Source of the DNA: Paraspadella gotoi
Taxonomy: Eukaryota; Animalia; Chaetognatha
Direction of reading: 5' to 3'
Assembly (NCBI GenBank): GCA_051294375.1
Contig: CM119264.1
Span: 11,569,832 to 11,633,831, forward strand
Length of the DNA stretch: 64,000 nt
Part shown: piece by piece, positions 16,874 through 56,240 of the stretch
How positions within the stretch are numbered: position 1 is the stretch's first letter
Layout of the letters: the number at the start of each line of letters is the position of its first letter
Position numbers and translations under genes: made by a program
The notes under the pieces: generated by a model
Told to the model about the DNA's origin: nothing
Database searches by the model: none
Seen by the model: only the letters and a program-made list of their open reading frames with translations

Positions 16874-17214
16874 CTCATGACCGGGCGGAGGGGTTTGCGA
16901 AAAGGATGGATTGATTTATTGATCGATCGGTTTTATTTTTTTTCTTTCGTTTTCTTTTTTTTTACTTTTCTTTAAAAAAAAAATAATATTCTTAATTGTT
17001 ATTTGATTAATTAATCGTTATGTTTTATCTCTCTTTTCGTTGTATTTTTGTAATTAATGAAAAACGACAATTTTAATGGCTTTAACAACGATTGTTCAAA
17101 AAAAAAAAATCATTAAAATTGTCGTTTTTCATTGATTAATCTTGACTTAATCTTTACTAAGGACGAGGACTGCAATCTCTTCACAATCACGAAGATTGAA
17201 GAACTTGACCCACA

Positions 17215-17400
17215 AACAATTTGACAAACACAATTTGACAAATTTGACAAATTTGACAAATTTGACAAATTTGACAAATTTGACAAATTGACAAATTGAC
17301 AAATTTGACAAATTTGACAAATTTGACAAATTTGACAAACACAATTTGACAAACACAAACACAAACAACTTGACCNNNNNNNNNNTTGACCCACAAACAA
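17215..17400. repeat. Intronic 9-bp tandem repeat (TTTGACAAA)n with a 10-N gap
   Basis: Read directly from the sequence. The unit is a near-palindrome (reverse complement TTTGTCAAA). Confidence 0.9.
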
Positions 17401-17413
17401 TTTGCTCTCCTAC

Positions 17414-17614
17414 CCGAATTCAGATGGCATCCGGCGACCCGAGGGCTTTCGCATCTTTCCGACACTCGGTCCCAATGCAGCCAACCCGGGCACCACATCG
17501 TCGTCAGCCTCTGAGAGGGCGTCTCGAAAAATTCGCAGACGAAATACGCGCTGCAGTCTGGGTGGGGAAAGGTTTCGCCATCGTAGTTGCAGGACGGGAG
17601 ATAAGGCGGACGAG
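17414..17614 (-). CDS. Exon 2: chitin-binding type 2 (CBM14/peritrophin-A) domain
   Basis: Translates as RPPYLPSCNYDGETFPHPDCSAYFVCEFFETPSQRLTTMWCPGWLHWDRVSERCESPRVAGCHLNS, with 6 Cys and the HPDCxxYFxC...CPxxLxWD....C pattern. Acceptor AATCAG|, donor |GTAGGA, 201 nt, phase 1-1. Confidence 0.88.
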
Positions 17615-17929
17615 CTGATTCGAGAATGAGACAAGTTGAGAAGGCAAGTTAGAAAATTATATTTGTTGTATCTCGACTCGGTTCTTTCTCTTCTTTATTT
17701 GCGCCGCGAGTACTCGCGGGCAAAAAAATGTTTTTTAGCCATGTCATGTCATGTCATATCATGTGATTAAAAGGGAAATACACGTCAAAATAATGTCACT
17801 GCGGCGCAACTCATTGGAATTACCGTTTTTGTTTTTTAAAAAAAAATAGTTTTTTAAAAAAATTCTTCTTAAATTTTACACAGCAATATTTTTACAGGGT
17901 AAATTGAAAAATGATTAAATACTACTCAC

Positions 17930-20524: not shown

Positions 20525-23254
20525 CGCCGCCTCCGCCGCCGTCTCTTGGAGCACGGAAGCGGAGAAGGCGATCGACGCTCGACATCCGGTCGCCCATTCC
20601 TTCCACCCGGTCGCCGCGCACGAGCGCATTCCGAAGGCGTGCCGCCGCCGGAAATGGGGTCACTGGGGCGAAGAAAAAAAGGGGATGCTCGTCGGGCCTG
20701 AAGAGGGTCCGCGCTCTCGCGTCGATGAACCTTTTCGTTGTTATAGACGTCGTTGTCGTCGTCGTCGACGTCGTCGTCTCCATTCCGATCGAAACAAAAG
20801 AGCACATGTTCGACACGTCGTCTTTGACACGAAAAGAAACGATGATCGGCCAATTAGCAATCGCACCTCGTACGAAGACCAGGTTGTTAAGATACCATCG
20901 GTACTAAGGACATTAAGCCGGGGACGGAGATAATAAAAACGTTATCACTGCTAACGACATTAGGTCCCAGGGCCATTTACATACGGCGACGAATCGAAGG
21001 GGGTCCCGCCGAACGGATCCACGAGCTTCCACTTTTATCCCACTTTTCGAATCATTAGAGATTATGACAATTACTCTTTTTGGAGGGAAGGGAGACAGAG
21101 AGGAGTGTGGTAAGAGAGGGGAGGGGGAGATGACAAAGGAGACAGGTTTGTGTAAAAGAGGGTCTTAATAATAGGAGGGACAGCGATTAAGACGAAAAGA
21201 AAAAAAAAAGAAAGAATAGGAAGAATCTTTAAATAAAGAAGAGAACTTGAATCAATTCATCTTTTTATTACAAGATTGAGAAGCCTTTCTGTGACACCCC
21301 GGTTTTTTTTTAGAGTTTAACCTTCTCACCTCGACACTTCCTCGGCATCTTTGGGGGAAGTGAACGACAAGAAACCCGAGCGGCGTGAAATGACGCCGAC
21401 GGCGACCTAGAACCAAACGCCGCGCTCGAGCCTCGAGATTTGGGGAACCAAAAAAGTGGGAACTAATTGATGAGATTGAAAGGAAAGAAAGGCCTTGTTC
21501 TTTTGTTGAACTCTGAGATAGAACCGTAGAAAAGACCTTTCAATAGAGAGTGCGAAAAAGAAGGGTACGAAACAAATTCATGTAGATTATAGCGGATTTT
21601 AAGAAAAATAGTCTAAGAATGACACGAAAAGAAACTTATTGAATAAGATGGAAAGGAAGGCGACCAAAAATAAAAAAAGGAAAGAAACAAGGAAATCAGC
21701 GGGAGAAAGGAAATATAAATAAAAAGCTGAGAAGTAAACGAAGAGAAAGAAAGAAAATGGATGCGGATCCCTGGAGAGAAAAAAAAAGAAAGGAGAGAAG
21801 AAAGAGGGATGAAAAGAAAGGGAAGAACATACATCTCAGCTGAATTGGACTGTGGGGGGGGGGACTGTGCGGGGGGCAGGACTGGGCGGAAAGACAGTAC
21901 AGACATTGAGATTCGAATCGTCTCCGTCGCCGTCGCGCGTCGTTCGTCGTCGTCGTCGTCGTCGTTTTATATTGAGTTAGTTTTACATGATTCTTTGTAT
22001 AATTTCGTATCTGGACAGACGCCAGTCACTCAATTCGGAACATTCTTCTCGTTGAACCGCGAAGCTTTCTTCTTTCTCTGTCCACTTGCTTACTCTGCTT
22101 ATTTCCATTATTCTCCGAATGTAAATCTCTGTTTGGTCAATAGTCATTGCATTTCCTAATGACCCTAGAAAATTTCAGACATTCGCTGATTTAACTATGC
22201 CCCGCAGTCCCGAGTCTCGGTTCAGTGAAATGGATCTCGTTGCTTGAAAAAGACAGTGACGAGTTTCACATTCCTCTGTCTCGTTATCCTTTTTCCTTTG
22301 TTCTCCCTTCCCCCCCCCATTCTCTCGTTCTCTCTCCTTCCGTTCTCCTCTCTTTTTCCCTCGTCTCGATCTCCCGCCTAATCTCGTTTCCCGTCTTAAT
22401 CCACTTTTTCCCCTGGAGAGAGTTCATGCCGCGTCGGTTGTCGAGTTCACGCCGCCGGTCGTGAGGCTTTTGTCGCCGGCGGCGGTGGCGGCGCCGGCCA
22501 CGTCTAAGGCGGCGGCGTCGGCGGCGTCGGCAGCGTCGGCGGCGTCATCGGCGATGGCGACGAGTGTGGCTTTTCGCCCAAAACCAATTAAATCGCTCTC
22601 CGGAGCCTCTCGCCTCGAATCGCCGAAGAATAAGAAAAGGAGAAGGAAAAAAAAGTTTCATTTAATGATTTCGTTTTGTGACTTTTTTTTTTTTTTAGTT
22701 CGAAACGTAAAAAAAGAAATAAGGGAGAAAGAGCGAAGAAAAATGAGAATCTCATTGATTCGGACTCGATTCGCTCTCGAAACGATCGATTTGGGACAAA
22801 CAACTCGGATTCGTTTCAAAATAAGGATTTCTGATGTGAATCTCATAGAGTCAGTTGGTCCTTTTTTAGCCAGTCTATTGTCTAAGATCAGGATCGAGTT
22901 CCAATGAAGTTGCGAATGATTATCTTTAAATTTACACTTTTAACGTGATAAGTACATTTCTGAGTACTAAAAAGACCGATTCTGATTGGCTCATTCAAAG
23001 CTGGAGTCAACGCTTGAACTTTGTTCTTGCGCCTTCTCGAGCAGCGGCGCAGCACAGCGCAGCTTCGCAGTGTCGCAGCGTCGCAGCGTAGCTCCCTCTC
23101 TGACCAACCGATCGACGGAGGAAGGACTTGTTCACCGTCGCGATCATCGGTTGACAACTCCGCTCGAGTGGAAAATTGTCTTCTGTCAGAGTTGGAGCTC
23201 AAGACCTCATCTCCCTTGGCAATGGTGAGACTGGGGAGAGACGGACGAAAGAGA

Positions 23255-23285
<31 letters not shown>

Positions 23286-23579
23286 CGCTTAGTTTTTCTC
23301 GAAATTATTTCTAGTCCACATTGGAAACCACAACTTTATAGATAATACAGAAAAACATAAATTTATAAAAAATGTTAGTAACATTGACATCCAATCGGAA
23401 GTAACATATGCAGAGTCCAGGCAAAATCAATCCTTTGTAAGAAATGATTAGATTTTCAGATGACAATTTGGGGAGCAGAGAAAAATGATTCCAATCGGAA
23501 AGAATCGAGACTCGCAAACGTGGGGGTGTGGCGGTATATTCACACCGCCTCACGTCCACCATCCTTCAGCCAAATCCAT

Positions 23580-23797
23580 TGGCTCAGAGGGGGAACTCAC
23601 CATCCCAGGCGTAGTGTTCCATCCACAGTCCTAACGATTTCCATCTGCGTTGGCAAAGCGAGACCGTCCTAGGGTAACTGTGCCAGTGACTGGAGGCGTC
23701 ACTGAGGGTCGGAAGCCCCCAAAGCCAACAGTGAGATGCCCCATCCCAATGGGCATCACAGGCAACCCGGCTGTTGCCATAGGGGACACTTTTTTTT
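23580..23797 (+). mobile_element. SINE-like element: tRNA-like head, twister-like ribozyme core, 3' hairpins and oligo-T
   Basis: A-box-like TGGCTCAGAGG (23580-90); B-box-like GTTCCATCC (23616-24); core 23649-23729; hairpins GATGCC/GGCATC and GGCAAC/GTTGCC; T8 at 23790-97. Homologous in layout to 37668-37870(-). Confidence 0.55.
23649..23729 (+). ncRNA. Candidate type-P5 twister ribozyme
   Basis: GUUGGC-AAA-GCGA-GA-CCG-UCCUAGGG-U^AA-CUGU-GC-CAGUGAC-uggaggc-GUCACUG-AGGG-UCGGAAGC-CCCC-AAA-GCCAAC follows the twister order P5, P2', GA+T1, P1, UAA, P2, GC, P3, P4/L4, P5'. L4 CGG can pair with CCG and L4 GC with GC. Confidence 0.6.
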
Positions 23798-24803
23798 GTG
23801 GAAAGGGGGGGATTCAGAGAACAGCGCGTTGGATAAGTTCGGATGAAATGATACCATGGGAAAGTCGATTGCGAGAATTTGCTGAAGGCAACAACCAGGG
23901 CTTCTTTCATATTTAAGGACTCTGCCCTTGGCTCGGTCTTTGATTCCCCACTCGATTCAGATGCGACGCTTCTTTTCTTTTTCTTTCATTCGCAACTCTT
24001 TATTGGCATTTAAGTTAATTTATCGTCTTAAATGATTAAATGAAACAGAATTACGTTGGACTGAGGGCGGAGTGATGTAGAATTTACAACTGTTGCAGCA
24101 GTGGTGCGTCGAGCGCCTTTTATCGGTGGAGACTGGAGAGGGTTAAAGCTTTTTGCTCTGAATATCCCGTCTTGTTTTTTCACTTTTTCAACGTTGATGT
24201 CAAAACAGAATTGAAATCCGAAAGAATAAAAAAAAATTGAAAAANNNNNNNNNNNNNNNNNNNNNNNNNNNNNNNNNNNNNNNNNNNNNNNNNNNNNNNN
24301 NNNNNNNNNNNNNNNNNNNNNNNNNNNNNNNNNNNNNNNNNNNNNNNNNNNNNNNNNNNNNNNNNNNNNNNNNNNNNNNNNNNNNNNNNNNNNNNNNNNN
24401 NNNNNNNNNNNNNNNNNNNNNNNNNNNNNNNNNNNNNNNNNNNNNNNNNNNNNNTCTCTCCCCGATCGAGTCTTTCGTTGTCGAAGGGGCGAGAATCGAG
24501 TGACCGCGAAAATGAAGTGGAAACCTCATTCTCTGCTTACATAATACATTCCGCTTCGTCTCCGTCCTCTTTACATAATACATCGGGGTTGTGATGAAGA
24601 GCCACGCTTCGTTTCAAGAGAGAGAGAGAGAGGGAGAGGGAGAGACAGAGAGAGCGAGATGGAGAAAAAGAGAAAGAGACTAGTCTAGGAACTGGATTCT
24701 TTTCACATGGAAATTCGTTGAAGGGAGAATGAAAAAAACGAGGAATAAAAAACCGAGAGGGACAGGCTCGAAAACCTGTCTTGTATTCTCTCTCTCTCTC
24801 TTA

Positions 24804-33615: not shown

Positions 33616-33864
33616 ATGAAAAAGCCTTTTGCCCTTATATTCTTGCTCCTTTTCGCCCTTCCTGAGTATTACTTCCCGACCCGATACTTACCCTCGTCCT
33701 TACTCTACAACTCCCGAATTCAGTCCACCGCCTTACGCTTCGAATCCCCGACGATTCGATCCCCAGTTTACGAACCCGCTGCTGCTGTTGCGGCGCCCGT
33801 GGCGCCAGCGTCGTCAGCGTCGGCGCCCGCCACTCTCGAGGCTTTCCGGTTATCATTATGCTAA
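33616..33864 (+). other. Unverified 82-aa ORF with a signal-peptide-like N-terminus
   Basis: MKKPFALIFLLLFALP has a basic n-region and hydrophobic core, followed by a Ser/Pro/Ala-rich body. No domain recognised. Confidence 0.2.
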
Positions 33865-34023
33865 TCGCGGAGCAGTTATAGAAGTTATCGTCGAGTTATG
33901 GCCTAATAATCGGGCGCCCGCTTCTTTTTTTCCTTCTAATCCTTTTTCTTCTTGTCCCTCTCATGTTTTTTCTTTGGTTGGTCGACGGAGGAAGCGAAGC
34001 GCTAATGGAACCAAGTGTCTCTC

Positions 34024-34123
<100 letters not shown>

Positions 34124-35212
34124 CTCCTCTCTTCGCGGAGAATAACGAGTAGTTCGGTCGTGGCGACATCGGCGGCGGAATTGATTCTTATTCTTAACAT
34201 AACAATTAATCAACCGTTCCTCTCTCTACCGAAAGTTTATCCCGGATGTAATTGGGAATCGATCGATTCTTCTGAAACGAGTTTGCTCTTTTGCTATTCT
34301 CGTTAAAAGACGCGATTGGGAAGAAGCTTTAAACCCCCCCTCCCAAAAAAAAGAAGAAATAATAACGACAACAGCACACATTTCTTTCCCCAATATGATT
34401 CGACAACTTTAGCCCCATAGAGTCGCTTTCAGGCCTACTTACTCTCCGCATAAAGGCGACTCGAATCGTAATTCCCCCGTGAGCGCCATTCCGATGCTAA
34501 TCTATTGTTTTTCCGTCCTCGGATCTTCGGGCAGAAACTTTTTTTTCTTTTCAAACTTATTTTTTTTCTTTTCTGGAGAACGTTACTGTCGCTGAGTTGT
34601 TCTTCTTTTTGCCTCCAGTTTCGAATTCTTTCTCAATTGTTTGCTGCGCCCATGGTGTCTCCCTTTCAACAGCTTTTAGGATTTGTTGCTTGCCTTCGCT
34701 CAGGGGTTGCTATGACATTTTTCAGTTTGGAATTTCATCAGTTTTTCCCTTAAAAACTTTCGTTTCTCAAATTTATCTAGTTTTTCAATTTTTCCCCTCG
34801 TTTTTTTCTCTCTTTGTTTTCTCTGCTTCCACCGTTTTATCTTTCCAATTTTCTATTTCGCTTCCTCTCTCAAGACTTTTCTATTTCGCTTCCACTCTCA
34901 AGACTTTTCTATTTCTCTTCTTCTCTCAAGACCTAACTTTCCTTTCACCCAAAAAATCTTCTTGGCGTCGAGGAGATTCGAGGAATTAAGAGAGAGAAAA
35001 CTTGGAAAATAGAAAAGAAATAACTTCGGGATTTGAGCTCGAGCAGGGAATATCAATGGCCGAGCGCGTGACGGAATGACGCGAGATTGACGGAGCGTTG
35101 TGACGCTAGAGTGACGCGGTTTGCCGCGAGTAGGGGAGCAGCGCCATATTATTCTTTTTCACGCTCGACGCCGCGGGCATTCCTAACGATCTCTCGCTGC
35201 TCTCTACCCACC

Positions 35213-35266
<54 letters not shown>

Positions 35267-36856
35267 CTCTCTCTCTCTCTTTCTCTCTATTCTCTATCTC
35301 TCTCTCTCTCGATGCTCAACTGTTCTAAAAAAAAAAGAGAGAGAAAAACAGAGAGAGAAAGAGAAAGAGAGAAAGAGCGTTGAAACGATGAGAATAATAT
35401 GCATCTACAATGGTCTGGGGACCACTTGCCGTTCCGGGACGAGAGAGAGATAGAGAGGGGTAAGAAAATATGGAGAAGAGGGAGACACGCGTACAAGGGG
35501 TGAAAAGAGGAAGAAGTGGCGAGAGGGCGAGAGGGTGAGAAGGTGAAAGGGAGGTAACGTGAAAAATAAAGAGAGAAAGGGAGGAGAGGATTTCTCCCTT
35601 AAACCCCCCCCCCAAAAAAAGGAAAAATAAAACAAGTTAAGGAAGCTTCTCGCTTTCCAGGAATTATCGCTCGGGGATCGAAGCGCAGAAACGAGAAAAT
35701 ACTTATCGAGCCTCAGCCGAAAAAAAAAGACAAAAAAAGGGGTTCCTAAAAACGTTCGGAAAAAAAAAAGAAAAAAGAAAAATGTCCAAAAACGCGGAGA
35801 AAAAAAAAGCGGGGAAATATCGCCCCGCGAAGAATTGAATAGGAATTGCGTTGGATTTAGAAAGAAGAGAGATAAAAAAAATAATAGCGGCGAGCGAGAG
35901 GGACAGAAAAAAATCGGGCGAAGATTTTTGTCCTTCTAAGTTCGATATGTTTGTTTTCTAACTTGCTACGTTAAAGTTTTAATAAAAACTTCTTTACATA
36001 TCATATCATGTTTTTCATTACCAAAGGTAGAAATTGTCTTACCTGAGATTTCCGCGGCGATTGGTAGGAGAGAGAAAGTGGGAGAAGAAAAATACATGAT
36101 TTAAATTAGCATGTTAAAAAATTACACGGATTATCAGAGAAAATAAGAAATGATGTCCTTAGATAATTATGATCTTTTTTATTTTTTGGCGTACACGTTA
36201 TCAAAATCCCGCGCTTTTAGCTGTCGATTAATTTTTTCTTTTCGAAACGTACTCTGCCGTTATCAGTACTTTCGATCGTTTCTCCGCTCAAATTGAAAAT
36301 TGTAATACGAGAAAGTTTATCCTAAGAGTTTTAAGTTTTAAGCTTTAATTTTTGAGTTTACGATGTTTTTCTCCGAAGAGCCCCGAATTCTTCTACAACG
36401 ACGACGATGATAGCGACGAAAAGCGGCGCCCGGATCGAATCTTGGCGACGCCGATTTCGCCCCGAAGGCTCGAACGGCGCCCTCGCGTTTTCGCGAAAGA
36501 GAAACACGTGCGAACTCGCCTACTTTGATTATCGGGGTTCGTTTTTCTCGAGTTAGACATGTAATAATCGTGTAAGGGGTCGCTTAAAGCGAGAGCCATA
36601 ATCAAGTTATTCATATTCATAATCTAGTAACAATTTTGTAAAGAGAAAAGATCACGCAAACGTTTCCTTACTCCTTAAACCCGAAAAGGGTCGTCTTGTT
36701 AAATTAAGTGTCGGACGTAACCGTCGACGACCGCGCCACCGATCTTCGAGTTTTTCACCGGAAGTGAGAATGAGGTTCAGCGCCCCCTCCCCGGCGTCGT
36801 CGTCGCCGAGTCCGACGCCAGACAATAATTTCAATCTAAATTCTAAAAAAACGGGT

Positions 36857-36912
<56 letters not shown>

Positions 36913-37391
36913 AGGAAGAGAAGGAAAAAAAAAACAGAAGCTCGCCTTTTTCCCCGGTGTCTTAAATTCTTTGTTCCCATTTTTTCGTTCCTCTTTTCTC
37001 TTCCGTCTCATTAACTCGAATCTTTTTTTCCACTAAAATTCGTAGCCAGAGAAGAAAAAAAAAAAAAAGCCGCCGACAAAGAAGTTTAAAAGAGATATAA
37101 TAGCGGTGATAAAAAGGATTTAAAACAGTCCCTTCTCATTCTTGCTCTCTATCTTTTTGTTTTTTTTTTCGTTGGGTTTGGAACCGGAAAATGTCAGGAA
37201 AATTTAATCTCGTTTGCATACGGAAGAAAGAAACTCTGCCAAACGGAGGAGCGAACCTAATTATACGTTATCAATTAGAGAAAAGATGCAGGCTGAGAAA
37301 AAAACAAAAAATCAGAGGGGGAATTAGAATGTAAAAATAAGGAAATGTAAAAGGATACGTAATTTCGATAGATTTAAATCTGTCGGGTCAG

Positions 37392-40356
37392 GAAGTCTCG
37401 CGCAATCGCGTCAACGCTCTCTACGACACCATGATCAACTTGGTGTCCGGCTGCGCGGGCGGCGCCGTCAACGTCATCACGGGACAACCTCTCGACACGG
37501 CCAAGACCAAACTCCAAATCTACCCCAAATACTATCGAGGAACGACCCACTGTTTGAAGGAGACTTACTGGAAAGAAGGCTACAAGGGAATTTACTGCGG
37601 TCTTACTCCCAATTTGATGGTGAGGCGTTTTCGATCTTTTTTCTTTCAAATTTAATCGTATAGGAACGGGGAGACGTGTGATGCCTGGGGCGTGAGGCAT
37701 CTCCCGACAGCTGGCGCTCAGGGCTTCGGACCTGCAGTGACAACCCCATGTCTCTGGCATGTTGATTGTTTATGCCGACAGCCTAACACCATCACCCTTC
37801 ACCAGCGTGACCGTGAGGGGATTGAACCCTTGGGTAACGAGTACTAAACTGACCAAGCCAACGGGACGAGCGGAGATTCATTACGTTACACGGGAGGCGT
37901 TTTATAATTTGAGCTGATCTTCTACAGGTGGTCTTGCTAGAGAGCACCGTTCTGTTCATCTTGTATCCCTGGATGCAACGAAAACTCGCCAAAAATTTGG
38001 GAATTTCCGTGGAAGAGTTAACGCCTTTACACAAGGCCGGGGCTGGTAAGGATAGACTTGCCATGAATTACGAAGTTGAACTTTTTTGCAATAAGTCTCG
38101 GTGGTCGAGATTAATTAAACTAGTAATTGAAAGTAAAACCGACAATACAGTAACGTTTACAATGTGGACATCAAAGTTGAAAAGAGCATCTACAACACCT
38201 TGGCGTCTTTCTTGTCGAGCGCCATCTCTTGACGAGGCGTTTAAAATGAAGCGACGTCTTTTGTCGTCTGATCTTTTGTCCGCCATTTTTTAACGTCGTT
38301 GGTCTCTTCTCATTTTTTTTCTAGCTCCTCACTCTCCTCTATTCATCTCTCATCTCTCTCTCCCTCTGTCTTTCTCTCTCTCTCTTCTCTTTCTCTCAAT
38401 CATCACTACACTCACTCTACTCTCTCTCTCTCTATCTCTCTCCCTTTCTCTCTTCTCTCCTCTCCAACTTCTCTCTACTCACCTTTCTCCCCTCTCTCTC
38501 TTCTATCCCTAACTCTCGGCACTCACTCACCACTCCTCCTTCCTCTCTCTCCTATCATCTCTCTCTCTCTCTCCCTTCTTTATCTCTCCCTTTCCTACTC
38601 TCTACCCACTCTATCCACTCTTTCAGCTCTCTCGACATCACATTCTCTCACTCTCTTTCTCCCTCTCTCTCTCCGCTCAATCTCTCGATCCTCTACTCTC
38701 TCTCCTCTCTGCCAACTACACTCAGTCACTCAGATTTCACTCCTCCTATCGCTTTTTCTGTCCTTCGTCCTCTTCCTCCCACCTCCTTCCATCAATCTTG
38801 GAACACGCTGGAGACAAAAGGAGAAAAAAGTGAAAAAAAAGGAAAAAAAAAAGGACAAGTGGAAAAAAAGGAAAAATATAAAAGTCGGTCCACGAATGTC
38901 AAAGAGAGAGAGAGAGAGAGGCAAGGAGAGAGAGAAAGAGAGAGAGAGACAGAGAGAGAGGAGAGAGAGAGAATAACTAGTCACAAAGAAGAGGCAAATG
39001 AGATCTCAGGCCAAGAATCATTAAAAGACAATTCTTTTCTCCATAAGTTGACCCGAGGAGGAAAAAGTCATTTTTAAATCACGCAGAGACAATTTTTATT
39101 TAACTGCTGATCTGCCCATCGTACCAGTAGTTGTAATTTGTTTTAAAACCACTGTAGTTTTAAAACTTTGTTTAAATAGTTTCTTAAATTGATATTCTAA
39201 GATACGTCAACCTTATAATTTCGGTCACGATATATTTAGCTAACTATAAATAAATAATAAATCTAGTCTTCCCCCTTCCTTTCTCTCCTCTCTCTCTCTT
39301 CTCGTCTTCTTCCTTTCCGTGCGCTGCTCTCTCTGCCTTCTCTGTCCCCGTCTTCTCTCTTGTATCTCTGTCCGTATTTCCCCTCTCCTCTCTCCCTCTC
39401 TCTTTTCGTGCTCTCTCTCTCTTTCAGGGCAGCTTGTCGTCGGGTGGCTTCGCCCTTGCGATGACTCCCGCCGAAGTCGTCAAATGTAGAATACAAGTTA
39501 TGAGAGAGACCTGTGTCTTCAAAGGTGAGTTTTTTGAAAGAGTAAGAAAAGATTAAGGTAAGTCAGGCCTTTGACTTTCCCAGATCGATTCCTCGCGGAC
39601 GCGAATCCTCCGATCCGTCGATTCGTCCGCGAACTCGTCCGCGTCGAAGGATGGAGGACGCTCTTTAAGGGGATGGACGCCGCCGTCGCCAGAGACGTCG
39701 TCGGCGGCTTCTTCTACTTTGGCGTCTACGAGGCCGTGCTTAAGGTGTGTCTTAATGACGGTTGGCCTTTTAGAGACCTATAAGAGGCCAAGATGTTAAA
39801 GGGGACATCGTGGTGGGTCTATTTAAGATCAAACTGCCAAAGACGCTCTTCTGTTGAGAGAATAAGATATGATAGGCCAAGTTGAGTAAGTCGTGTGTCT
39901 TCCGAGCTGCTAGAAAATTCACTGTGGCAGATATTCTATTCATTTCGAAGCCAGATTGGTCAGTCCTGCAATCTTGCATTCATGCAATCAAAACTCGACA
40001 CCACAGCTACTGTGTCCACCGGGACAGAGAAGGGAAGAAGTGACTCACTTCAACATCNNNNNNNNNNGGCATTGAGATTTCAGGCAAGAATCTTAAAAGA
40101 CAATTCTTTCTCCATAAGTTGACCCGAGGAGGAAAAAGTCATTTTTAAATCACGCGGAGAATTTTTATTTACTGCTATCTCCCATCTCCACTAGTTGTAT
40201 TGTTTTAAAACACTGTAGTTTTAAAACACTGTAGTTTAACGTTTTTAAAAAAGATATTTGTATAATTTGAAATTCTAGGAATTAAGCGTCAACATAAATA
40301 AATAATAATCCTAGTTTCTTCCCCCCTTTCTCTCTCTCTCTCTCTCCGTTTATTAT

Positions 40357-40449
<93 letters not shown>

Positions 40450-41582
40450 ACTCACCCGAAACGACGTCGAAACGGAAAGGAGGTGATCCACATGGCGACG
40501 CCGCCCGCTCCGCGAGCGACGAAGATGTTGAATAGTGAGTCACTTCTTCCCTTCTCTGTCCCGGGTGGACACAGTACTGTCGGTGTCGAGTTTTTTGTAA
40601 TTGCATGAATGCCAAGATTGCAGGACTGACCAATCTGGCTTCGAAATGAATAGAATATCTGCACAGTGAATTTTCTAGCAGCTCGGGAAGACACACGACT
40701 TACTCAACTTGGCCCGATTCATATTTTATTCATCTCAACAGAAAGAGCTCCGTCTTGGCAGTTCTGACTTATTAAATAGACCCACACCGATGTTCCCCTT
40801 TAACATTTCTTGGCTCTTTATAGGCCTCTAAAGGCCAACCTGCCTCATTCAAGACACACCTTTAAGCACGGCCTCGTAGACGCCATAGTAGAAGAAGGCC
40901 GCCGACGACCGTCTCTGGCGACGGCGGCGTCCCATCCCTTAAAGAGCGTCCTCCATCCTTCGACGCGGACGACGTTTCGCGGACGAATCGACGGATCGGA
41001 GATTCGCGTCGCGATCGGAATCGATTCTGGGAAGTCAAAGGCCTGACTTACCTTTAATCTTTTCTTACTCTTTCAAAAACTCACCTTTGAGACACAGGTC
41101 TCTCTCATAACTTGCTATTTCTACAATTTGACGACTTCGGCGGGAGTCATCGCATAGGGCGAAGCCCACCGACGGACAAGCTTGCCTGAGAGAGAGAGAG
41201 AGAGAAGAGAGAGATGACGAGAGAGAGGAGAGAGGAGAGAGAGAGAGAGAGAGAAGGAGGAAAGGGGAAGAAACTAGGATTTATTATTTATTATGTGACG
41301 CTAATTCTAGAATTTCAAAATTATACCCAAAATATCTTTTTTTTAAAAAACGTTAAAACTAAGTGCTTTTAAAAACTAACAGGTGTTTTTAAAACAATTA
41401 CAAACTAGTGGAGATGGGATAGGGATTAGCCAGTAAATAAAAATTCTCCGCGTGATTTAAAAATGACTTTTTCTCTGCGGGTCAACTTATGTGAGAAAGA
41501 ATTGTCTTTTAAGATTCTTGCCTGAAATCTTCAATGCCTCTCTTTGACTTTATTCTCTTCTCTCTCTTCTCTTTCTCTCTCT

Positions 41583-41655
<73 letters not shown>

Positions 41656-43557
41656 TTGACATTCGTGGACCGACTTTTTATTGGTTTTCCTTTTTTTTCC
41701 ACTTTCTTTTCTTTTTTTCCTTTTTTTTCACTTTTTTCTCTTTTGTCTCCGCGTGTGCCAAGATTGATGGATAGAGGGGGGAGGGAAGAACGAAGGACGA
41801 AAAAAGCGATAGAGAGTGAATGAGACTGAGTGTGTTGAGAAGAGAGAGAGATGAAGAGAGAGAGGAGAGAGGAGAGAGAGATGAGAGAGAAGAGAGAAGT
41901 GAGAGAGAGAGAGATAGAGAAAGAGGAGAGAGAGAGTGATGTGAGATGAGTGGAGTGAGGTGAGAGAGTAGAGGAGAGAGAGAGAGAGAGGAGAGAGAGA
42001 AGAGAGAGAAGAGAGAGAGAGAGGAGAGAGAAGGAGGAGAGGAGAGAGAGAGATGAGAGGAAAGAGAGAGAGAGAGAAAAGAGAGAGAGATGATGGGAGC
42101 TAGAAAAAAAATGAAGATAGAGACAACGACTGTTAAAAAATGGCGGACAAAGATCAGACGACAAAAGACGTCGGTTCATTTAAACGCACTTCGTCAGAGA
42201 TGGCGCTCAGACAAGAAAGACGCCCAGGTGTTGTAAGATGCTCTTTTCAACTTTTGCATGTCCACATTTGATAAACGTTTTACTGCTTATTGTCGGTTTT
42301 ACTTTCAAATTACTAGTTTAATTAATCTTCGATCCACCGAGACTTTATTGCAAAAAAGTTTTCAACTTTCGTAATTTCATGGCAAGTCTATCCTTACCAG
42401 CCCGGCCTTTGTGTAAAAGGGCGTTAACTCTTCACGGAAATTCCCAAATTTTTGGCGAGTTTTCGTTGCATCCAGGGCATACAAGAAATTGAACAGAACG
42501 GTGCTCTCTAGGCAAGACCACCTGTAGAAGATCAGCTCAATATTATAAAACGCCTCCCGTGTAACGTAATGAATCTCCTGTCTCGTCCCGTTGGCTTGGT
42601 TCAGTTTAGTACTCGTTTTACCCAAGGTTCAATCCCTCACGGTCACTGCTGCGTGAAGGGTGATGGTGTTAGGCGTTTCGGCATAAACAATCAACATGCC
42701 AGAGGACATTGGGGTTGTCACTGCTAGGTCCGAAGCCCTGAGCGCCAGCTGTCGGGGAGATGCCTCAACGCCCCAGGCATCACACGTCTCCCGTATACCT
42801 ATACGATTAAATTTGAAAGGAAAAAAGATCGAAACGTCTCACCAATCAAATGAGTAAGACCGCAGTAAATTCCCTTGTAGCCTTCTTTCCAGTAAGTCTC
42901 TTTCAAACAGTGGGTCGTTCCTCGATAGTATTTGGGGTAGATTTGGAGTTTGGTCTTGGCCGTGTCGAGAGGTTGTCCCGTGATGACGTTTGACGGCGCC
43001 GCCCGCGCAGCCGCCGACACCAAGTTGATCATTGGGTCTAGAGGAGCGTTGACGCGATTGCGCGAGAACTTCCTGACCCGACAGATTTAAATCTATCGAA
43101 ATTACGTATCCTTTTACATTTCCTTATTTTTTACATCTAATTCCCCCTCTGAATTTCTTTGTTTTTTTCTCAGCCTGCATCTATTTCTCTAATTGATAAC
43201 GTATAATTAGTTCGCTCCCTCCGTTTGGCCCAGAGTTCTTTTCCTTCGTATGCAAACGAGATTTTAAATTTTTCCTGAATTTTTCCAGGTTCCAAACCAA
43301 CCGAAAAAAAACAAAAAGATAGAGAGCAAGAATGAGAAGGGACTGTTTTTTTAAATCCTTTTTATCACCGCTATTATATCTCTTTTTAAACTTCTTTGTC
43401 GGCGGCCTTTTTTTTTTTTTCTTCTCTTGGCCTACGAATTTTAGTGGAAATAAAAGATTTCGAGTTAATTGAGACGGAATTAGACGAAAAGAGGAACGAA
43501 AAATGGGAACAAAGAATTTAAGACACCGGGGAAAAAAGGCGAGCTTCTGTTTTTCTC

Positions 43558-43615
<58 letters not shown>

Positions 43616-46600
43616 ACCCGTTTTTTTAGAATTTAGATTGAAATTATTGCTCTTGGCGTCGGACTCGCCGACGGACGACGCGGGAGGGGCGCTGAATACC
43701 TCATTTCTCACTTCCGCGTGAAAAACTCCGAAGATTCCGGGGCGCGCGTCGTCGACGGTTACGTCCGACACTTAATTTAACAAAAGACGACCCTTTTTCG
43801 CGGTTTAAGGAGTAAAGGAAACGTTTTGCGTTGAATCTTTTCTCTTTACAAAATTGTTACGAGATTATGAATATGAATAACGTTTGATAGTGGCTCTCGC
43901 CTTTAAGCGACCCCTTACAACGATTATTACTATGTCCTAACTCGAGAAAAAACGAACCCCGATAATCAAAGTTAGGCGAGTTCGCATCGTGTTTCTCTTT
44001 CGCGAAAACGCGAGGGCGCCGTTCGAGGCCTTCGGGGCGAAATCGGCGTCGCCAAGATTCGATCCGGGCGCCGCTTCGTCGCTATCATCGTCGTCGTTTG
44101 TAGAAGAATTTAGGGCTCTTCGCGAGAAAAACATCGTAAACTCAAAATTTTAAAGCTTAAAATTTAAAACTCTTAGGATAAACTTTCTCGTATTTACAAT
44201 TTCAATTTGAGCGGAGAAACGATCGTGAAAGTACTGATAACGGCCAGAGTACGTTTTCGTAAAAGAAAAAATTAATCGACAGCTAAAAGCGCGGGGATTT
44301 GATAACGTGCTGTACGCAAAAAATGAAAAAGATCATAATTTATCTAAGGACATTCATTTCATTATTTTCTCTATAAGTCCGTGTAATTTTTTAACATTGT
44401 CTAATTTTAAATCATGTATTTTTCTTCTCCCACTTTCTCTCTCCTACCAATCGCCGCGGGAAATCTCAGCGTTAAGACAATTTCTACCTTTGGTAAAATG
44501 AAAAACATTGATATTTGATATGTAAAGAAGTTTTTATTAAAACTTTAACGTAGCAAGTTAGAAAACAAACATATTCGATACTTAGAAGGACAAAAATCTT
44601 CGCCGATTTTTTTCTTGTCCCTCTCGCTCGCCGCTATTATTTTTTTTATCTCACTCTTTCTAAATCCAAACGCAATTCCTATTCAATTCTTCGCCCCCCC
44701 CAGGGCGATATTTCCCCGCTTTTTTTTTCTCCGCGTTTTGGACATTTTTCTTTTTTCTTTTTTTCTCCGAACGCTTTTTTAGGAACCCCTTTTTTTGTCT
44801 TTTTTTTTTCGGCTGAGGCTCGCAATAAGTATTTTCTCGTTTTTCCTGCCTTCGATCCCCGAGCGATAATTCTGGAAAGCGAGAAGCTTCCTTAACTTGT
44901 TTTATTTTTCCTTTTTTTGGGGGGGGGGTTTAAGGGAGAAATCCTACTCCTGCCCTTTCTCTCTTTATTTTTCACGTTACCTCCCTTTCACCTTCTCACC
45001 TCTCGCCCTCTCGCCCACTTTCTTCCTCTTTTCACCCCTTGTACGCGTGTCTCCCTTCTCCATATTTTCTTACCCCTCTCTATCTCTCTCTCGTCCCGCG
45101 CAACGGCAAGTGCGTCCCCAGACCATTGTAGCATGCATATTATTCTCATTCGTTTCAACGCTCTTTCTCTTCTTTTTCTCTTTTCTCTCTCTGGTTTTTC
45201 TCTCTGTTATTTTTTAGAACAGCTTTGAGCATCGAGAAGAGAGAATAGAGAATAAGAGAGGTAGAGATAGAGAGAGAGAGAGATGAAGCAGAGAACGGAT
45301 GAGAGAGAGACGATGAGAGAGAGAGAGAGAGGAGCAGAGAGATGAGAGAAGGGGAAAGAAAGGAGGAAGGGGGGGGGGGGGGTAAGAGCAGGCGAGAGAT
45401 CGTTAGGAATGCCCGCGGCGGTCGAGCGTTGTAAAAGAATAATATGGCGGCTTCCCCTCCGCCTCAAACCGCGTCACTCTAGCGCTCACAACGCTCCGTC
45501 AATCTCGCGTCATTCCGTCACGCGCTCGGCCCATTGATATTCCCTGCGTCTGAGCTCCAAATCCCGAAAGTTATTTCTTTTTCTATTTTTTTCCAAGTTT
45601 TCTCTCTCTTAATTCCTCGAATCTCTCGACGCCAAGAAGATTTTTTGGGTTTGAAAGGAAAGTTAGGTCTTTGAGAGAAGAAGAAGAAATAGAAAAAGTC
45701 TTGATAGTGGAAGCGAAATAAGAAAAGTCTTGAGAGAGGAAGCGAAATAGAAAATTGGAAAGAATAGAAACGCGTTGGAAGCCAGAGAAAACAAAGAGAG
45801 AAAAAAACGAGGCGGAAAAAATTGAAAAACTAGATAAATTTTGAGAAACGAAATTTTTAAGGGAAAAACTGATTGAAATTTCCAAACTGAAAATGTCATA
45901 GCCAACCCACTGCAAGGCGGAAGGCAAGCAACAAATCCTAAAAGGCTGTTTGAAAGGCGGAGACACCCGTATGGGCCGCAGCAAACCAATTGAGAAGAAT
46001 TCGAAACTGGTAGGGCAAAAAGAAGAACAATCTCTAGCGAAGTAACCTTCTCAGAAAAGAAAAAAAAAATAAGTTTGAAAAGATAAAAAAAAGTTTCTGC
46101 CCGCAAGATTCCGAGGAGGAAAAAAAACAATTGATTAGCATCGAATGCGCGCTCACGGTGGCGGAATTACGATTTTCGAGTCGCCTTTATGCCGAGAGTA
46201 ATAGGCTCTGAAAGCGACTCTATGGGGCTAAAGTTGTCGAAATCATATGGGGAAAGAAATGCTGTGCTGTTGTCGTTATTATTCTTCTTTTTTTGGGAGG
46301 GCGGGGTTTTTAAAGCTTCTTCCCCAAATCGCGTCTTTTAACGAGAATTAAGCAAAAGGGAGCAAAACTCGTTCAGAAGACATTCGAATCCGATTCCCAA
46401 TTACATCCGGGATAAACTTTCGGTAGAGAGAGAACGGTTGTTTGAATTAATTTGTAAGAATAAGATCAAATTCCGCCGCCGATGTCGCCACGACCGATAC
46501 TTACTCTTATTCTCCGGCGAAGATGAGGAGGACGACGACGACGACGACGACGACGACGACTTACGACACGACGACGACGTACGAGACGTACGACGACGAG

Positions 46601-47452
46601 GAGAGAGACACTTGGTTCCATTAGCGCTTACGCTTTCCTACCGTCGACCAACAAAGAAAAAACATGAGTAGGGACAAGAAGGAAAAAGCGATTAGAAGCG
46701 AAAAAAATAGAAGCGGGGCCCGATTATTAGGCCACTAACTCGACGATAACTTCTATAACTGCCTCCGCGATTTAGCATAATGATAACCGGAAAGCCCGAG
46801 AGTGCGCGGGCACCGACGCTTGACGTACTGCTGGCGCCACGGTGCGCCGCCCAACAGCAGCAGCAGGTTCGTAATAACTATCTCTCTCTTTTTNNNNNNN
46901 NNNNNNNNNNNNNNNNNNAGAGGGAGTCCGAAATCCAATTCTGATGACGAGACATAACAGCGAGAAGAGAAATTTCGGCGTCGGGAGATTTTGTAAATTA
47001 TGTTTTCAATTTTGGTGACGTCGTTGAAGACATTTATCTTATGGCGACGGAAGGCTTCCCCGAGCGGGCGGCGAAACGGGGGGGGGGACGGCGTGAGTGG
47101 GAAGGATACCCCTGTTGACTCATTTCGTCCTCAATGCTATCTTGCATTTGAATCCCACCGCTCGGCGAACTTTACGATTTAGGATTTTTTATAATTTATT
47201 TACTCTCTTCGTCGTTTCGTTTCAATGGCGCTTGGTTTAACTTAAAAGAGCTCCGACTTCAGTCGTCCTCGTTCTTTTTTTTTTGTTTTTTTTTTTTTCA
47301 TGTGTGTCCTTAACCTTTCGAACTTTTTCAGCATTTCCCAACCGCAGATAGGTTTTATTATCCAGAATTTTTTATCGTGTTTTCAGAGGGAGCCTGACTT
47401 TGCCTCTATCGGTGTTGCATTGTACTTATTTATTCATCATCTATCTCTTCTT

Positions 47453-47483
<31 letters not shown>

Positions 47484-48491
47484 TTCGTTCTCTCTCTCCC
47501 TCATCTCTCTCTCTCTCTCTCTCACATCTCTCTTCTGCATCCATTCTCCCACTACGCCGTCTTCCACAGGCGCGGATGCAAAACAAGACGACGAAAAAGG
47601 GAACTAAGGGGAAATGGGGTTTAGCGATGGCGCGCGCAATTTATTCGTCGGAGGGAGTCTCCGCCCTGTGGAGCGGGATTCGGCCGATCCTGATCAGGTG
47701 GGTGAAGCATCAGGTGGAGAAGGGAACCGAGGTTCAGGCGGGAATCGGGGATTCAGGCGGAGGACAAGATCATGTTGGGATGGGAAGGGGATTAGGCTGG
47801 TAAGTGGATTGTTGGGATTTATACGGGGAGACAGAAAGGTAAGGGGCGGAGACTAGGATCGAGCGAGGAATTAGTCGTATTAGATTAGAGTAAAAACTTT
47901 TCAATGATGATTAAAGTTAAAATTGCCGAAAATTTTAGTAAATAGTTATGAATTTTTGAAAAAAAAATAAAATGTTTACAAACAACGATTTTATTTTAAA
48001 AAATAGACAAGTTTCGGCTTTGATACAAGCCTTCTTCAGCCCAAAACAGAAAAAACCCTTGCCATTTCAATCTGAAATGAAAGAAATGAAGGAATTTTAT
48101 CGGAGGAACTAATGAATGTAATCATTCGTTTATAATTCAGTTAAATTCACCTTTTTATAATTTTTTTTCATAATAAAATAGAAGTAAAATTGATATATAG
48201 CTATTAAGGCGGGCCAAAATTGATCACTTTTTATCATTAAGAGTTCTGTAATATAAAATTCATTTGTTCATCATATACTTAATCAATATTTAACTAGTGA
48301 AGCACAGTATAACATTAAAGCGTTATTAATATTATTAATAGCTATATCTATAACCTATATCTGTCTTTCTCAGGACCATCCCAGGCTGCGGTCTCTTCTT
48401 CGTCGTCTACGAAAGCCTTCGATCGAACCTTCGGAATTTCTTCCTCGATCCCGAACCAAACCTCAAAGAGTTCGTCGATAAGAGACATTGA
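37392..48491 (+). CDS. SLC25 mitochondrial carrier, ornithine/basic amino acid carrier (SLC25A15/A29/A45)-like; spliced gene
   Basis: Exons: 37392 (ATG 37431)-37619 (LVSGCAGGAVNVITGQPLDTAKTKLQ...KEGYKGIYCGLTPNL); 37928-38045; 39428-39524 (TPAEVVKCRIQ, 1-nt slip); 39584-39744 (EGWRTLFKGMDAAVARDVVGGFFYFGVYE); ~40007-gap (complete only in the inverted copy, 40456-40576: GGVAMWITSFPFDVV); 47570-47697 (ARMQ...EGVSALWSGIRPILIR); 48374-48491 (TIPGCGLFFVVYE...*). The Px[DE]xxKxR/K carrier signature is clear in repeats 1 and 2 and partial in repeat 3. Splice sites are GT-AG with consistent phases where the sequence is clean. Confidence 0.9.
37668..37870 (-). mobile_element. Intronic SINE-like element: tRNA-like head plus twister-like core (second family member)
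   Basis: On - strand: TGGCTTGGTCAGTTTAG (weak A-box-like), GGTTCAATCCC (B box), then GCUGGU-GAA-GGGU-GA-UGG-UGUU...AACA-AUCAACAU-GC-CAGAGAC...GUCACUG-CAGG-UCCGAAGC-CCUG-AGC-GCCAGC, then GAGAUGCC...GGCAUCACA as in 23733-23760. Confidence 0.6.
40068..46893 (-). other. Indel-rich inverted duplicate of ~33768-40057, probably a long-read gap-fill or misassembly artefact
   Basis: 40456-46874 is the reverse complement of 33768-40057, extended to the end of carrier exon 5, with scattered 1-nt indels. It is bounded by N gaps (40058-67 and 46894-918). 40068-40445 is a third, forward copy of ~38993-39420 joined through a (CT)n tract. Confidence 0.85.
47990..48045 (-). mobile_element. Penelope-like element terminal remnant with a minimal type I hammerhead ribozyme
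   Basis: Minus strand reads GGG-CTGAAGA-A-GGCTT-gtatca-AAGCC-GAAAC-TT-GTC. The core is intact, stem II has 5 bp, stem III is minimal and the triplet is GUC, followed by AATAAA (47995-47990). Stem I pairs poorly. Confidence 0.7.
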
Positions 48492-53904: not shown

Positions 53905-55444
53905 GGTTAATTGAATCGTAAACCGGTTTCAGCGACCAAACAGCGGCGGAGGCAGAGGCGACCCAATTCTGGTGAAAAACAAATGGGGAGACTGAGATCT
54001 CTCGCGAGAAATGGATGGAGAGATAAAAGCGAAGAAAGGGAAATGCGAAACAGTTTATTATAACTTGTTTATAATCTTAACTAATACCTAATTTCTCGGT
54101 TTGTTTTGATTCCGCAAACAAGAGGATCGTCGATTTAATTTTCATTGAAGAAGTAGAAGAACAGGAAGGTGAACAATTCTGGGTCAAGACGACGACGACG
54201 ACTCGGCGATGAGGGAGAATCGAGGGTAATTTACCTTCCGAAGAAAAGGTCGACGACAGAAGGGGTCGCGGGGAGGTTGACCCTCTGTCGAAGCGGGCCG
54301 TGGGATCAGTGACACCTTAAAAAGGGTGATCACTGATCAGTTCTGAGGAAGAAAAGCTATGGTCACTATTGGTTGGACCAAGTTCTGGCCAATTTTTCGG
54401 GCCATATACTATGCAAAACCTACGAGCCGAATTTTTAAATTAAAACTTCCATAACAGCATGACATAACTGAAGAATCTTCGAATTGTAAAAAAATGTTTG
54501 AGTTCAAGGGAAAAACCTAGTTTTACGCAACCGAGACTGGTTTTGAATTTCGGGTGTCAAAATTAATGATAATTTTAATCTGAGATTTGATTTTAAAAGA
54601 ATTTTGGAATTTTTTTCGGAATGAAATTATCGGAATCATTATGCTTTTCTTTTTTTTCGATCGCTTGCCTTTCTTGCACTGCGAGTGCGGCTCAAAAAAA
54701 GGCCAATATGGCATCAGAGGTAAGGACTGCAAATTTTATTGGCAGCCTTCTTTGATCTAAATTCTAGATTAATTCCAAAACAAAACTGATTTTTATGTAA
54801 AGCGAATATATTTTGTAATATGCACAATATGCACACTAAGAACAATTTTTTTCTTCGACAATTTTCAGCCCAGCCTCAGTACGTCGACAACCACCGAAAT
54901 AAACCTAACCAAACAAAATCCACAAGCAGCTTCCAGTTTTAACTGAATTCTGTTTTATTTCACGTAATTTTAAGTCTTTTTAATCCGAAAAAAATTTTAC
55001 TGTCGCTCTATCAATAAATGACGTATTTAGTCACTAGAAATACAATCGGATTAATAATTTATTTCGAAAATTTTAAAATTCTCAATTATTAAATAATTGA
55101 TAAAACCCAGTTGAAACGAGCTGCTTAGGGGAGGAAAACAAAACAGCATCGTCGAATCAGACTTTGTTCGGACAATCGGACAATCAGACGTCGCTTTGCG
55201 GAAAAGTCGAAGACAAGCATCGACGAAAGAAAAGATTGGTTCAAAGGTTGGTCAATTAAAGTTCAAACAATTGAACAGTGAACACCCAATACCCTTTACA
55301 GTTCTCACAGCTAATTGATTGTCGGCCTGAAACCTAAACAAAATACGTAGCAATTGAAGCGATACCATGAAAAACAAAACAACACAAAAGGTCTGATCAC
55401 TACCTTTCCCGACCGCCAACATTTCCCCCGCTCTTTTTCCCAAG

Positions 55445-56240
55445 ATTCGCTCCAACCCTCGCCAATTCTGGCCAATTTCCGTGGCTCGTGTCACTTGGAA
55501 GTCTCGAGTTCGACGTCGATCTCGGCGTCATCGCGTGGCGCCATCTTTGTGGCGGCGCAATCATCGGGCCGCGACACGTCTTAACGGCGGGTCATTGCGC
55601 GTCGGAAGTGACGTCGGCGAGGGCGTCTGCGACGGACTTAAATGATGACGACCCTCGCTCACGAATCCTCAACTTGACGACGCGCTACAGACATCCACAG
55701 TTTCGGCGCACGTCGCGCGGCGTCTTCCACGACATCGCAGTCGTAATCGTCAACGCCACCTTCGCCTTCGACGAACTCGTGGCGCCGATTTGTCTCCCGG
55801 CGCTCGACGCCGAATTCGTGGAGAACGAAATGTTCGAGTTCGCCGGTTGGGGGCGCGCGTGGTCCGCTTCGGGATGGGAGAAGAGAGGAGAGGGTTCGGC
55901 TTCCTCCGCCGAGGCTTCATCACTTTATCCGTCCAAACTCCGATGGTCCCGTCTGCCTTTCGTGCCAGAGTCTATCTGTAAAAGATCGATGGCGCGATGG
56001 GGCGTCGGCTGGGGCGCCGTCTTCTGCGCCGGACACACGCGGCGCCGGCCGAGAGACGCGGCCTTGTGCGCCGGCGATTCAGGATCCCCGCTGGCGCGGC
56101 GAAACGAAGCGGGATGCTGGGAGGTGGTGGGCGTGTCAGCGTGGGGTCATCCGGGTTGCGCGCGCCGGCCCGCGGTCTTCGTCGACGTGGCAAAGTACGT
56201 ATTTTGGATCGAGTCGGTCGTCGACCAAAAGACGTCTTGA
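55445..56240 (+). CDS. S1A (chymotrypsin-family) serine protease; catalytic domain in a single terminal exon
   Basis: GQFPWLVSL..HLCGGAIIGPRHVLTAGHC (His), HDIAV (Asp), PICLP, AGWG, CAGDSGSPL (Ser), VVGVSAWG..GC...PAVFVDVAKYVFWI. There is no in-frame ATG upstream. Likely acceptor CTCTTTTTCCCAAG| at 55444; upstream exon(s) not resolved. Confidence 0.93.

Follow-up and report, generated by a model that had tools for sequence, protein, structure and literature searches.

The window analyzed here, a stretch of 64,000 nucleotides from the chaetognath Paraspadella gotoi, carries a 255-bp repeat unit with the end motifs of a long terminal repeat (LTR), in which two Pol III box-like motifs are followed by a circularly permuted twister motif and two hairpins (Table 1). 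A diverged relative of this arrangement lies further along the window in two versions. Several protein-coding features were also present. A trypsin-like open reading frame (55371-56240, forward strand; PF00089, E 7e-34) had no close relatives in a protein search, a chitin-binding domain was encoded at 17187-17648 on the reverse strand, and mitochondrial-carrier exons were found on the forward strand at 37380-37619 (PF00153, E 1e-14), with a GT donor-like site next to it at 37620, and at 47246-47803. These domains are in keeping with an animal host; Atlas matches were mixed, and a search for homologues gave no match at E <= 1e-20 in 1195 candidates.

Table 1. Features of the repeat unit and of its diverged relative, with positions counted from the first letter of the window.
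Feature	Position	Strand	Basis or remark
Target-site duplication GGGG, left copy (4 bp)	23523..23526	.	Sequence
Solo LTR, whole mobile unit at the site (255 bp)	23527..23781	+	Contig depth and loose ends stop at both places in four runs; sole pair of TGT start and 4-6 bp duplication around the motif
5' integrase recognition motif	23527..23533	+	7/7 vs. CsRN1 motif TGTGGYG (PMC3601003, Table 3)
Hairpin at LTR start, 6 bp	23530..23549	+
Pol III A-box-like motif	23580..23590	+	1 mismatch to consensus; no listed family variant
Pol III B-box-like motif	23616..23624	+	1 mismatch to consensus; perfect 9-nt core in second locus
Type-P5 twister motif (P5, P2, GA, T1, P1, UAA, T2, P3, P4, L4)	23649..23729	+	Rfam matches, descriptor, pair check
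P5, 6 bp	23649-54 / 23724-29
Conserved GA	23662-63
T1 pseudoknot, 3 Watson-Crick pairs	23664-66 with 23710-12
P1, 3 bp, 2-nt loop	23667-74
UAA	23675-77
Predicted self-cleavage site U^A	23675..23676	+	Homology with twister (PMC8501958, PMC5408937)
T2 pseudoknot	23682-83 with 23715-16
Hairpin, 7 bp	23735..23757	+	Common to second locus, one compensatory change
Terminal hairpin of LTR	23761..23778	+
3' integrase recognition motif	23775..23781	+	5/7 vs. MSYYAMA (PMC3601003, Table 3)
Target-site duplication GGGG, right copy (4 bp)	23782..23785	.	Sequence
T8 run, flanking DNA outside the family	23790..23797	+	Family depth ends at 23781-82
Diverged second locus: weak A box, B box (37819-27), P5-type twister-like motif (37710-37806), shared hairpin (37680-37701)	37680..37860	-
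Second version of the diverged locus	42592..42782	+	Within inverted near-duplicate of 6.3 kb

Limits and Ends of the Repeat Family

Twelve public runs contain the stretch, and contigs of four of these (X1, X5, X9, and X10) were aligned to positions 23250-24050. The aligned contigs numbered 11,022, 2,592, 455, and 1, respectively, and the family covered only 23527-23781. In X1, 176 contigs left the alignment at 23526-27 and 276 at 23779-82, with a flank agreement of 0.42-0.48; these junction counts by themselves indicate hundreds of insertions. The X1 flanks were AT-rich and mutually dissimilar, and among the rows listed the majority cells at the junctions ended and began with ATAT. Summed contig depth in X1 (1.0-1.8 million vs. 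45-62) gives no copy number and was used solely to set the limits of the family. The multi-copy family proposed in a previous sequence-only reading was thus borne out by thousands of aligned contigs with sharp ends. Its limits had been misplaced by 53 bp at the start and 16 bp at the end, both of which lie further upstream than proposed, and the T8 run that had been counted as part of the element is flanking DNA, since family depth ends at 23781-82.

Enumeration of all combinations of a TGT start with a 4-6 bp duplication around the twister motif returned one pair, with the start at 23527 and GGGG on both sides. The ATA end of the unit is a published variant of the CsRn1 clade (PMC2582038). 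A single X10 contig (organism B, depth 6) continued past the LTR end at 23781 and, after 2 letters, agreed by eye at 11/12 letters with the tRNA-Trp primer site that PMC2582038 gives for CsRn1-type elements; the same stretch of this contig, also by eye, agreed with the complement of the bee tRNA-Trp end in Fig. S2 of PMC10886601 at 11/13 letters. No two-LTR element, polypurine tract, partner element, transcript end, or circle was seen among the window copy and the contig rows listed.

Two further observations were made on the aligned contigs. The X10 contig comes from a different organism and was 97% like the LTR (6 differences in 191), a likeness that contamination, a close relative, and horizontal transfer would explain alike. 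At 23622 and 23678 in run X5, the loose ends of 11 and 8 contigs, respectively, belonged to sequence that is related to the LTR but diverged from it, in which the B-box core is perfect and a further L4 loop of twister type occurs; this suggests further subfamilies.

Pol III Box-Like Motifs

The A- and B-box-like motifs noted in the sequence-only reading were found in the head of the LTR, each one mismatch away from the consensus. A box pair of this kind occurred in 7 of 5000 shuffles of the LTR head, and three such pairs were counted in the whole window. None of the 15 head variants fell within the 20 box positions (P 0.018, an indicative value since the copies are related). At the second locus, the B core is perfect and the A box is poor. 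Compared with the Helenus consensus given in PMC10886601, the LTR boxes lack some of the conserved letters (YGG, GGTTC), and a reverse CCAAT motif overlaps the A box. Both AATAAA and T4 were absent from the 255-bp LTR. The head had been described as tRNA-like, a description that found no support, as ARAGORN returned 0 genes and the Rfam tRNA family was not among the four matches at E <= 10 in the 551-bp neighbourhood. The two boxes probably form a Pol III promoter.

Anatomy of the Twister Motif

The helices and conserved bases of the motif, both of its mismatches, and the two downstream hairpins were confirmed in the sequence at the places previously given for them. In the window copy, P3 has 7 bp, P4 has 3 bp, and P2 forms 3 of 4 pairs. 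The conserved GA, UAA, and U..AAGC are all present together with the two pseudoknots T1 and T2, and the catalytic and pseudoknot bases are intact. The mismatch that closes P2 is C23678.A23661, which adjoins the catalytic G, and the one at the base of P4 is A23705.C23720. The position formerly proposed for the cut is supported by homology with twister.

A strict descriptor was defined as GA plus three bases pairing with U-NNN-AAGC, UAA, GC, at least 3 of 4 pairs in P2, at least 2 in P1, and at least 3 in P4. It matched once in the window and at least once in 1 of 300 dinucleotide shuffles. When UAA was relaxed to UNA, three matches were obtained, namely the window copy and the two versions of the second locus; 2 of 300 shuffles contained one match and 0 contained two. 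The previous assignment to a P5-type twister with a covaried T1 pseudoknot agrees with these frequencies and with T1 being changed on both sides in the second locus.

Constraint within the Family

Variants were counted at a 1% threshold in the four runs, which gave 31 variable places among the variants listed. Positions 23638, 23643, 23679, and 23681, where the window copy differs from nearly all aligned depth, were left out; at 23679 and 23681, the window letters and the common letters both pair with the opposite P2 strand. Within the 81-nt motif, 7 of 12 variable places fell in the 17 unconstrained (loop, linker, or mismatch) positions (P 0.002), and 6 of 8 did so without CpG sites (P 0.001), P values that are indicative only because the unconstrained set was chosen after the variant table had been seen and the copies are related. 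Variable places above 5% numbered two in the motif, both in the P3 loop, vs. 10 in 92 head positions. The P2 closing C.A showed no variant at or above 1% among those listed in the four runs and is thus a trait of the family rather than damage to the window copy. The decay suspected in the sequence-only reading therefore holds only in part. The motif is very probably a twister that has been selected to work, and we lean toward the common copies still cutting RNA. Separately, 8 of these 31 places are CpG transitions, which hints at methylation of the repeat by the host.

A Second, Diverged Locus

Between the window copy and the second locus, four pairs are changed on both sides (in P5, the middle T1 pair, P4, and the downstream hairpin) and two pairs are changed to G.U. 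The pair closing P2 is C.A at one locus and A-U at the other, and both loci contain two broken pairs. At the second locus, UCA stands where the window copy has UAA, so that the cleavage-site A is lacking there and the twister-like motif of this locus is probably impaired.

The two versions of this locus sit in an inverted near-duplicate (33768-40057 vs. 40524-46874) with 85.7% identity, 759 gap positions vs. 198 mismatches over 6700 columns, a gap of 10 N between the halves, and a carrier exon that is frame-broken in one version. This looks like a long-read fold-back or assembly artefact, and the two sites were consequently counted as one locus. In the enumeration of possible ends, the version at 37.7 kb had no pair of TGT start and 4-6 bp duplication, and the version at 42.7 kb had one 400-bp candidate that was absent from the other version. 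Another candidate unit (37677-37890, reverse strand; 42562-42783, forward strand) begins with TGTAACG, ends with CATCACA, and is flanked by 9-bp direct repeats with one mismatch, a length that does not fit the 4-5 bp duplication of an integrase. The locus lies antisense directly behind the mitochondrial-carrier exon and is probably intronic.

Covariance Models, Folding, and Natural Relatives

The covariance-model check that had been suggested for the motif returned nothing: 0 Rfam matches reached the gathering score in the 64-kb window, and the best of the four matches in the 551-bp neighbourhood was twister-P1 at 19.0 bits (E 0.25), where gathering needs 67.2. Covariance models score pseudoknot bases as sequence, by which a covaried T1 is penalised. 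We also built a model of our own (R1) from 26 of 56 parsed motifs, taken from 66 phage and prokaryote loci in the canonical P5 order; T1 was fixed by the search pattern, and 20 of the 26 motifs were without P3. The window copy was not among the 13 matches of this model at E <= 10, and its two best matches (E 0.086 and 0.41) both hit the second locus, though in partial or wrong register. The 56 parses included 31 with at least 3 pairs in P2 and at least 2 in P1, in which the P2 closing pair was U-A in 25, C-G in 4, C.A in 1, and U.U in 1. P1 had at least 4 bp in 29 of these 31 natural-looking motifs and has 3 bp in the window copy; a twister stays active without P1 (PMC5408937).

Folding of the isolated motif with ViennaRNA, a model that leaves pseudoknots out, gave probabilities of 0.99 for P5, 0.91 for P3, 0.01 for P2, and 0.07 for P4, and in a longer transcript the probability of P5 dropped to 0. 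The strand fold of 23640-23800 was ordinary (z -0.45). Searches for the exact family motif in metagenomes and virus contigs gave 0 matches. A degenerate motif matched at least 120 metagenome and 5 virus loci, with 59 of 64 metagenome parts scanned. None of these 125 loci had P1, P2, and P4 together, their best BLAST match had an E of 0.12, and the CGG/CCG form of T1 was absent from them as a structured motif. Phage and prokaryote contigs (loci L126-L191) yielded about 30 distinct twister motifs in P5 order, with 96.5% of cells paired and double changes in 10 of 12 pairs. One of these loci, L190, resembles the window LTR family in its closing C.A pair and in a P1 of 3 bp.

Comparison with Known Elements

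The features of the unit were compared with those of several described systems. In the accessible text of Kojima 2024 (PMC10886601), Helenus elements are non-autonomous LTR elements with tRNA-type boxes, and their animal families make 4-bp duplications and depend on Gypsy. The Helenus/TRIMp3 elements of that paper resemble the window element, or what is proposed for it, in a short LTR with A and B boxes, 4-bp duplications, dependence on Gypsy, one tRNA-Trp-primed family, common solo LTRs, and an LTR length range into which the window LTR falls. Unlike them, the window LTR has no tRNA similarity, weaker boxes, and no T-run behind the B box, with a twister in that place. The main text of PMC10886601 contains "twister" 0 times and "ribozyme" once, in a reference title, and its supplement returned 0 matches for four twister L4 motifs in a search that would miss motifs broken across lines.

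The supplement of the same paper also allowed some observations on other LTRs. In DataS1 part 9, a T4+ run stands behind the B box in 10 of 12 Helenus LTRs. Two LTRs from gall wasps, Helenus-2_SyJa-LTR and Helenus-2_SyUm-LTR, have no T4+ run, a TGTGG start, a tRNA-Trp primer site, and, as judged by eye, a type III hammerhead-like motif in the slot held here by the twister. This parallel suggests that the ribozyme takes the place of the Pol III terminator. In both, this motif comprises, again by eye, a GUC triplet, CUGAUGA, GAAA, three stems, and a loop-loop complement of about 10 nt. SyJa is the sole tRNA-Trp-primed family in Fig. S2 of PMC10886601, and the text of the paper makes no mention of the hammerhead-like motif. 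The two families are close sisters and consequently count as one event.

Plant LTR retrozymes, as described in the accessible text of Cervera et al. 2016 (PMC4918200), likewise carry a ribozyme within an LTR that measures a few hundred bp, make 4-bp duplications, show Ty3/gypsy-type ends with a primer site, and occur as solo LTRs, and their hammerhead is predicted to be blocked in long RNA, as the folding results predict for the window twister. They differ in having plant hosts, a type III hammerhead, a tRNA-Met primer, and, in that text, no mention of Pol III boxes, whereas the window LTR is from an animal and has a P5-type twister and a putative tRNA-Trp-type site. No hammerhead was among the Rfam matches at E <= 10 in the 551-bp neighbourhood. 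Metazoan non-LTR retrozymes are also small, non-coding, ribozyme-processed animal retroelements, but they consist of tandem repeats with type I hammerheads and are described without LTRs, primer sites, or 4-bp duplications (PMC7229834).

The CsRn1 clade (PwRn1, AgCR; PMC2582038, PMC3601003) shares with the window unit the TGTGGYG start, the ATA-type end, the 4-bp duplication, and, judging from the X10 contig, putatively the tRNA-Trp primer site. Its members, which have gag-pol with a CHCC Gag between two LTRs, are described as lacking env (PMC2582038). In contrast to the window family with its ATAT-rich junctions, they are autonomous and carry AATAAA, and the accessible text of these papers reports neither a ribozyme nor a target preference. 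Type-P5 twisters (Rfam RF02684; twister-P1 is RF03160) have the same order of elements, GA, UAA, GC, the U-NNN-AAGC loop, and both pseudoknots; the window copy departs from them in a T1 of CGG/CCG instead of CCC/GGG, a 3-bp P1, a C.A pair closing P2, and scores far below gathering. The twister variants of the RTE element Perere-3 in Schistosoma mansoni (PMC8501958) also lie in a high-copy animal retroelement. That element is autonomous and non-LTR, with a P1-type twister at its 5' junction where the duplication forms P1, whereas the window twister is permuted and internal to an LTR. Weighing these likenesses, we somewhat prefer to see the window element as an LTR retrozyme in its way of working and a Helenus LTR in its architecture, although it falls short of the full definition of either, having no hammerhead and no tRNA similarity.

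Discussion

We put at roughly 0.6 the probability that the 255-bp unit is a solo LTR and stems from an abundant Ty3/gypsy-type retroelement that has CsRn1-clade ends, is likely non-autonomous, and is likely transcribed by Pol III from the boxes within the LTR, and that the unit bears a permuted twister motif predicted to cut RNA at 23675/23676. That the element is non-autonomous and driven by Pol III is, taken by itself, a likely proposition. The sequence-only reading had also proposed a non-autonomous retroelement and drawn a comparison with retrozymes, both of which are supported here. The class it had named, a SINE, does not stand in view of the LTR ends, the 4-bp duplication, the lack of an A-rich or simple-repeat tail, and the position of the T8 run outside the unit. 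With the SINE unsupported, the cut would do more than part a tRNA head from a SINE body: if the element has two LTRs, both RNA ends would be fixed by it.

The proposed full element would consist of an LTR, a primer site, a polypurine tract, and another LTR, with Pol III starting near 23570 and meeting no T4 stop in the LTR. Cuts in both LTRs would give a unit-length RNA with 5'-OH and cyclic-phosphate ends, which a host ligase would close into a circle. A CsRn1-clade reverse transcriptase primed by tRNA-Trp would copy the circle, and the integrase of the partner would insert the DNA. The ribozyme would thereby take over from two parts at once, the Pol III terminator and the terminal R repeat, and solo LTRs would arise by recombination or directly from circle-derived cDNA. 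RtcB circularises animal retrozyme RNA (PMC7229834). By analogy with this and with plant LTR retrozymes, the route of double cleavage, ligation, and reverse transcription of the circle by a CsRn1-clade partner is a serious possibility that falls somewhat short of even odds.

Other readings of the same data were weighed. The unit could be the LTR of an autonomous CsRn1-clade element, with gag-pol inside, that carries the twister by happenstance; the boxes would then be incidental, and the ribozyme would trim genomic RNA or aid cap-independent translation, a job that twister variants perform for an autonomous RTE element at its 5' end (PMC8501958). The end motifs, 4-bp duplication, and tRNA-Trp primer site are traits of autonomous CsRn1-clade elements, the reverse CCAAT motif overlaps the A box, and the internal part of the X10 contig is known from the 30 letters listed of the 85 behind the LTR. 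However, the unit lacks the AATAAA that is present in all six modelled Metaviridae LTR groups (PMC3601003), its boxes are invariant in the family with a perfect B core at the second locus, and cutting in both LTRs would presumably strip the cap, poly(A), and R repeats, so we regard autonomy as unlikely. To the same degree unlikely is a Helenus-type LTR with a dead twister relic, belonging to a family that was propagated along the usual TRIM route and whose motif has ceased to cut. The two mismatches that run through the family (C.A closing P2 and A.C at the base of P4), the weak model scores, the folding that hides the core, and the second locus without its cleavage-site A speak for such a relic, but common variants keep away from the core, no catalytic or pseudoknot base is altered, activity does not require P1 (PMC5408937), and a Pol III transcript would meet no T-run terminator in the LTR.

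A quite improbable alternative is that the 255-bp unit is itself a complete mobile element that has no internal part, spreads by way of an RNA copy, and relies on a borrowed gypsy-type or Ginger-type integrase for its insertion. The hundreds of different flanks on either side, the ATAT preference, and the absence of any continuation common to the rows listed for the organism-A runs would fit it, as would the proposal that plant retrozyme circles give solo-LTR cDNA (PMC4918200). Against this stand the one contig with an LTR-to-primer-site junction and the consideration that identical internal parts collapse into few contigs while the flanks were judged from listed rows. Moreover, one cut per unit would give a unit-length circle only from tandem copies, and no head-to-tail joint was found among the 15 listed of 82. 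A tRNA-derived SINE with an internal twister would account for A/B-like boxes near the 5' end, short length, and high copy number, but hardly for LTR end motifs, fixed ends on both sides, a 4-bp duplication, no tail, a T8 outside the unit, and a putative primer site behind the 3' end; we give it almost no weight. Nor do we give more to the twister likeness being a chance fit inside an LTR. Although no covariance-model score was significant, the descriptor statistics, the variant pattern, and the diverged locus, where the elements recur in the same order and compensatory changes include one in the pseudoknot, all argue against chance.

The preferred reading, a non-autonomous LTR element with a working twister, would touch on how ribozyme-bearing retroelements are grouped. 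In the accessible literature, LTR retrozymes are placed in plants and algae with hammerheads and animal retrozymes are said to lack LTR features (PMC7761336, PMC6765202, PMC7229834, PMC11722881, PMC13570524), and a role for twister is assigned only at the 5' ends of RTE non-LTR elements (PMC8501958, PMC7761336, PMC6765202, PMC7229834, PMC11722881, PMC13570524). We found no paper on a twister in an LTR, and none combining "CsRn1" with "ribozyme", in the open literature, a coverage from which most subscription journals and Repbase fall out. We tentatively suggest, at somewhat less than even odds, that LTR retrozymes exist in animals. A lineage of Pol III mini-retroelements that is primed by tRNA-Trp and depends on CsRn1 would have swapped its T-run terminator for a self-cleaving ribozyme more than once, for a twister here and for a hammerhead in two gall-wasp Helenus families, and would replicate through circular RNA.

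Should the motif be dead, the family would still be a new Helenus-like one with a ribozyme relic. Natural twisters with a changed pseudoknot escape current Rfam models, and similar families may consequently be widely missed. If the preferred reading is true, the permuted twister gains a concrete biological job, and a twister in the LTR of a very abundant animal element joins two classes that have been described separately, Helenus and the retrozymes. The rationale for the ribozyme would then be a simple one, the formation of RNA ends where Pol III has no stop signal, and it predicts both the cut site and a circular RNA.
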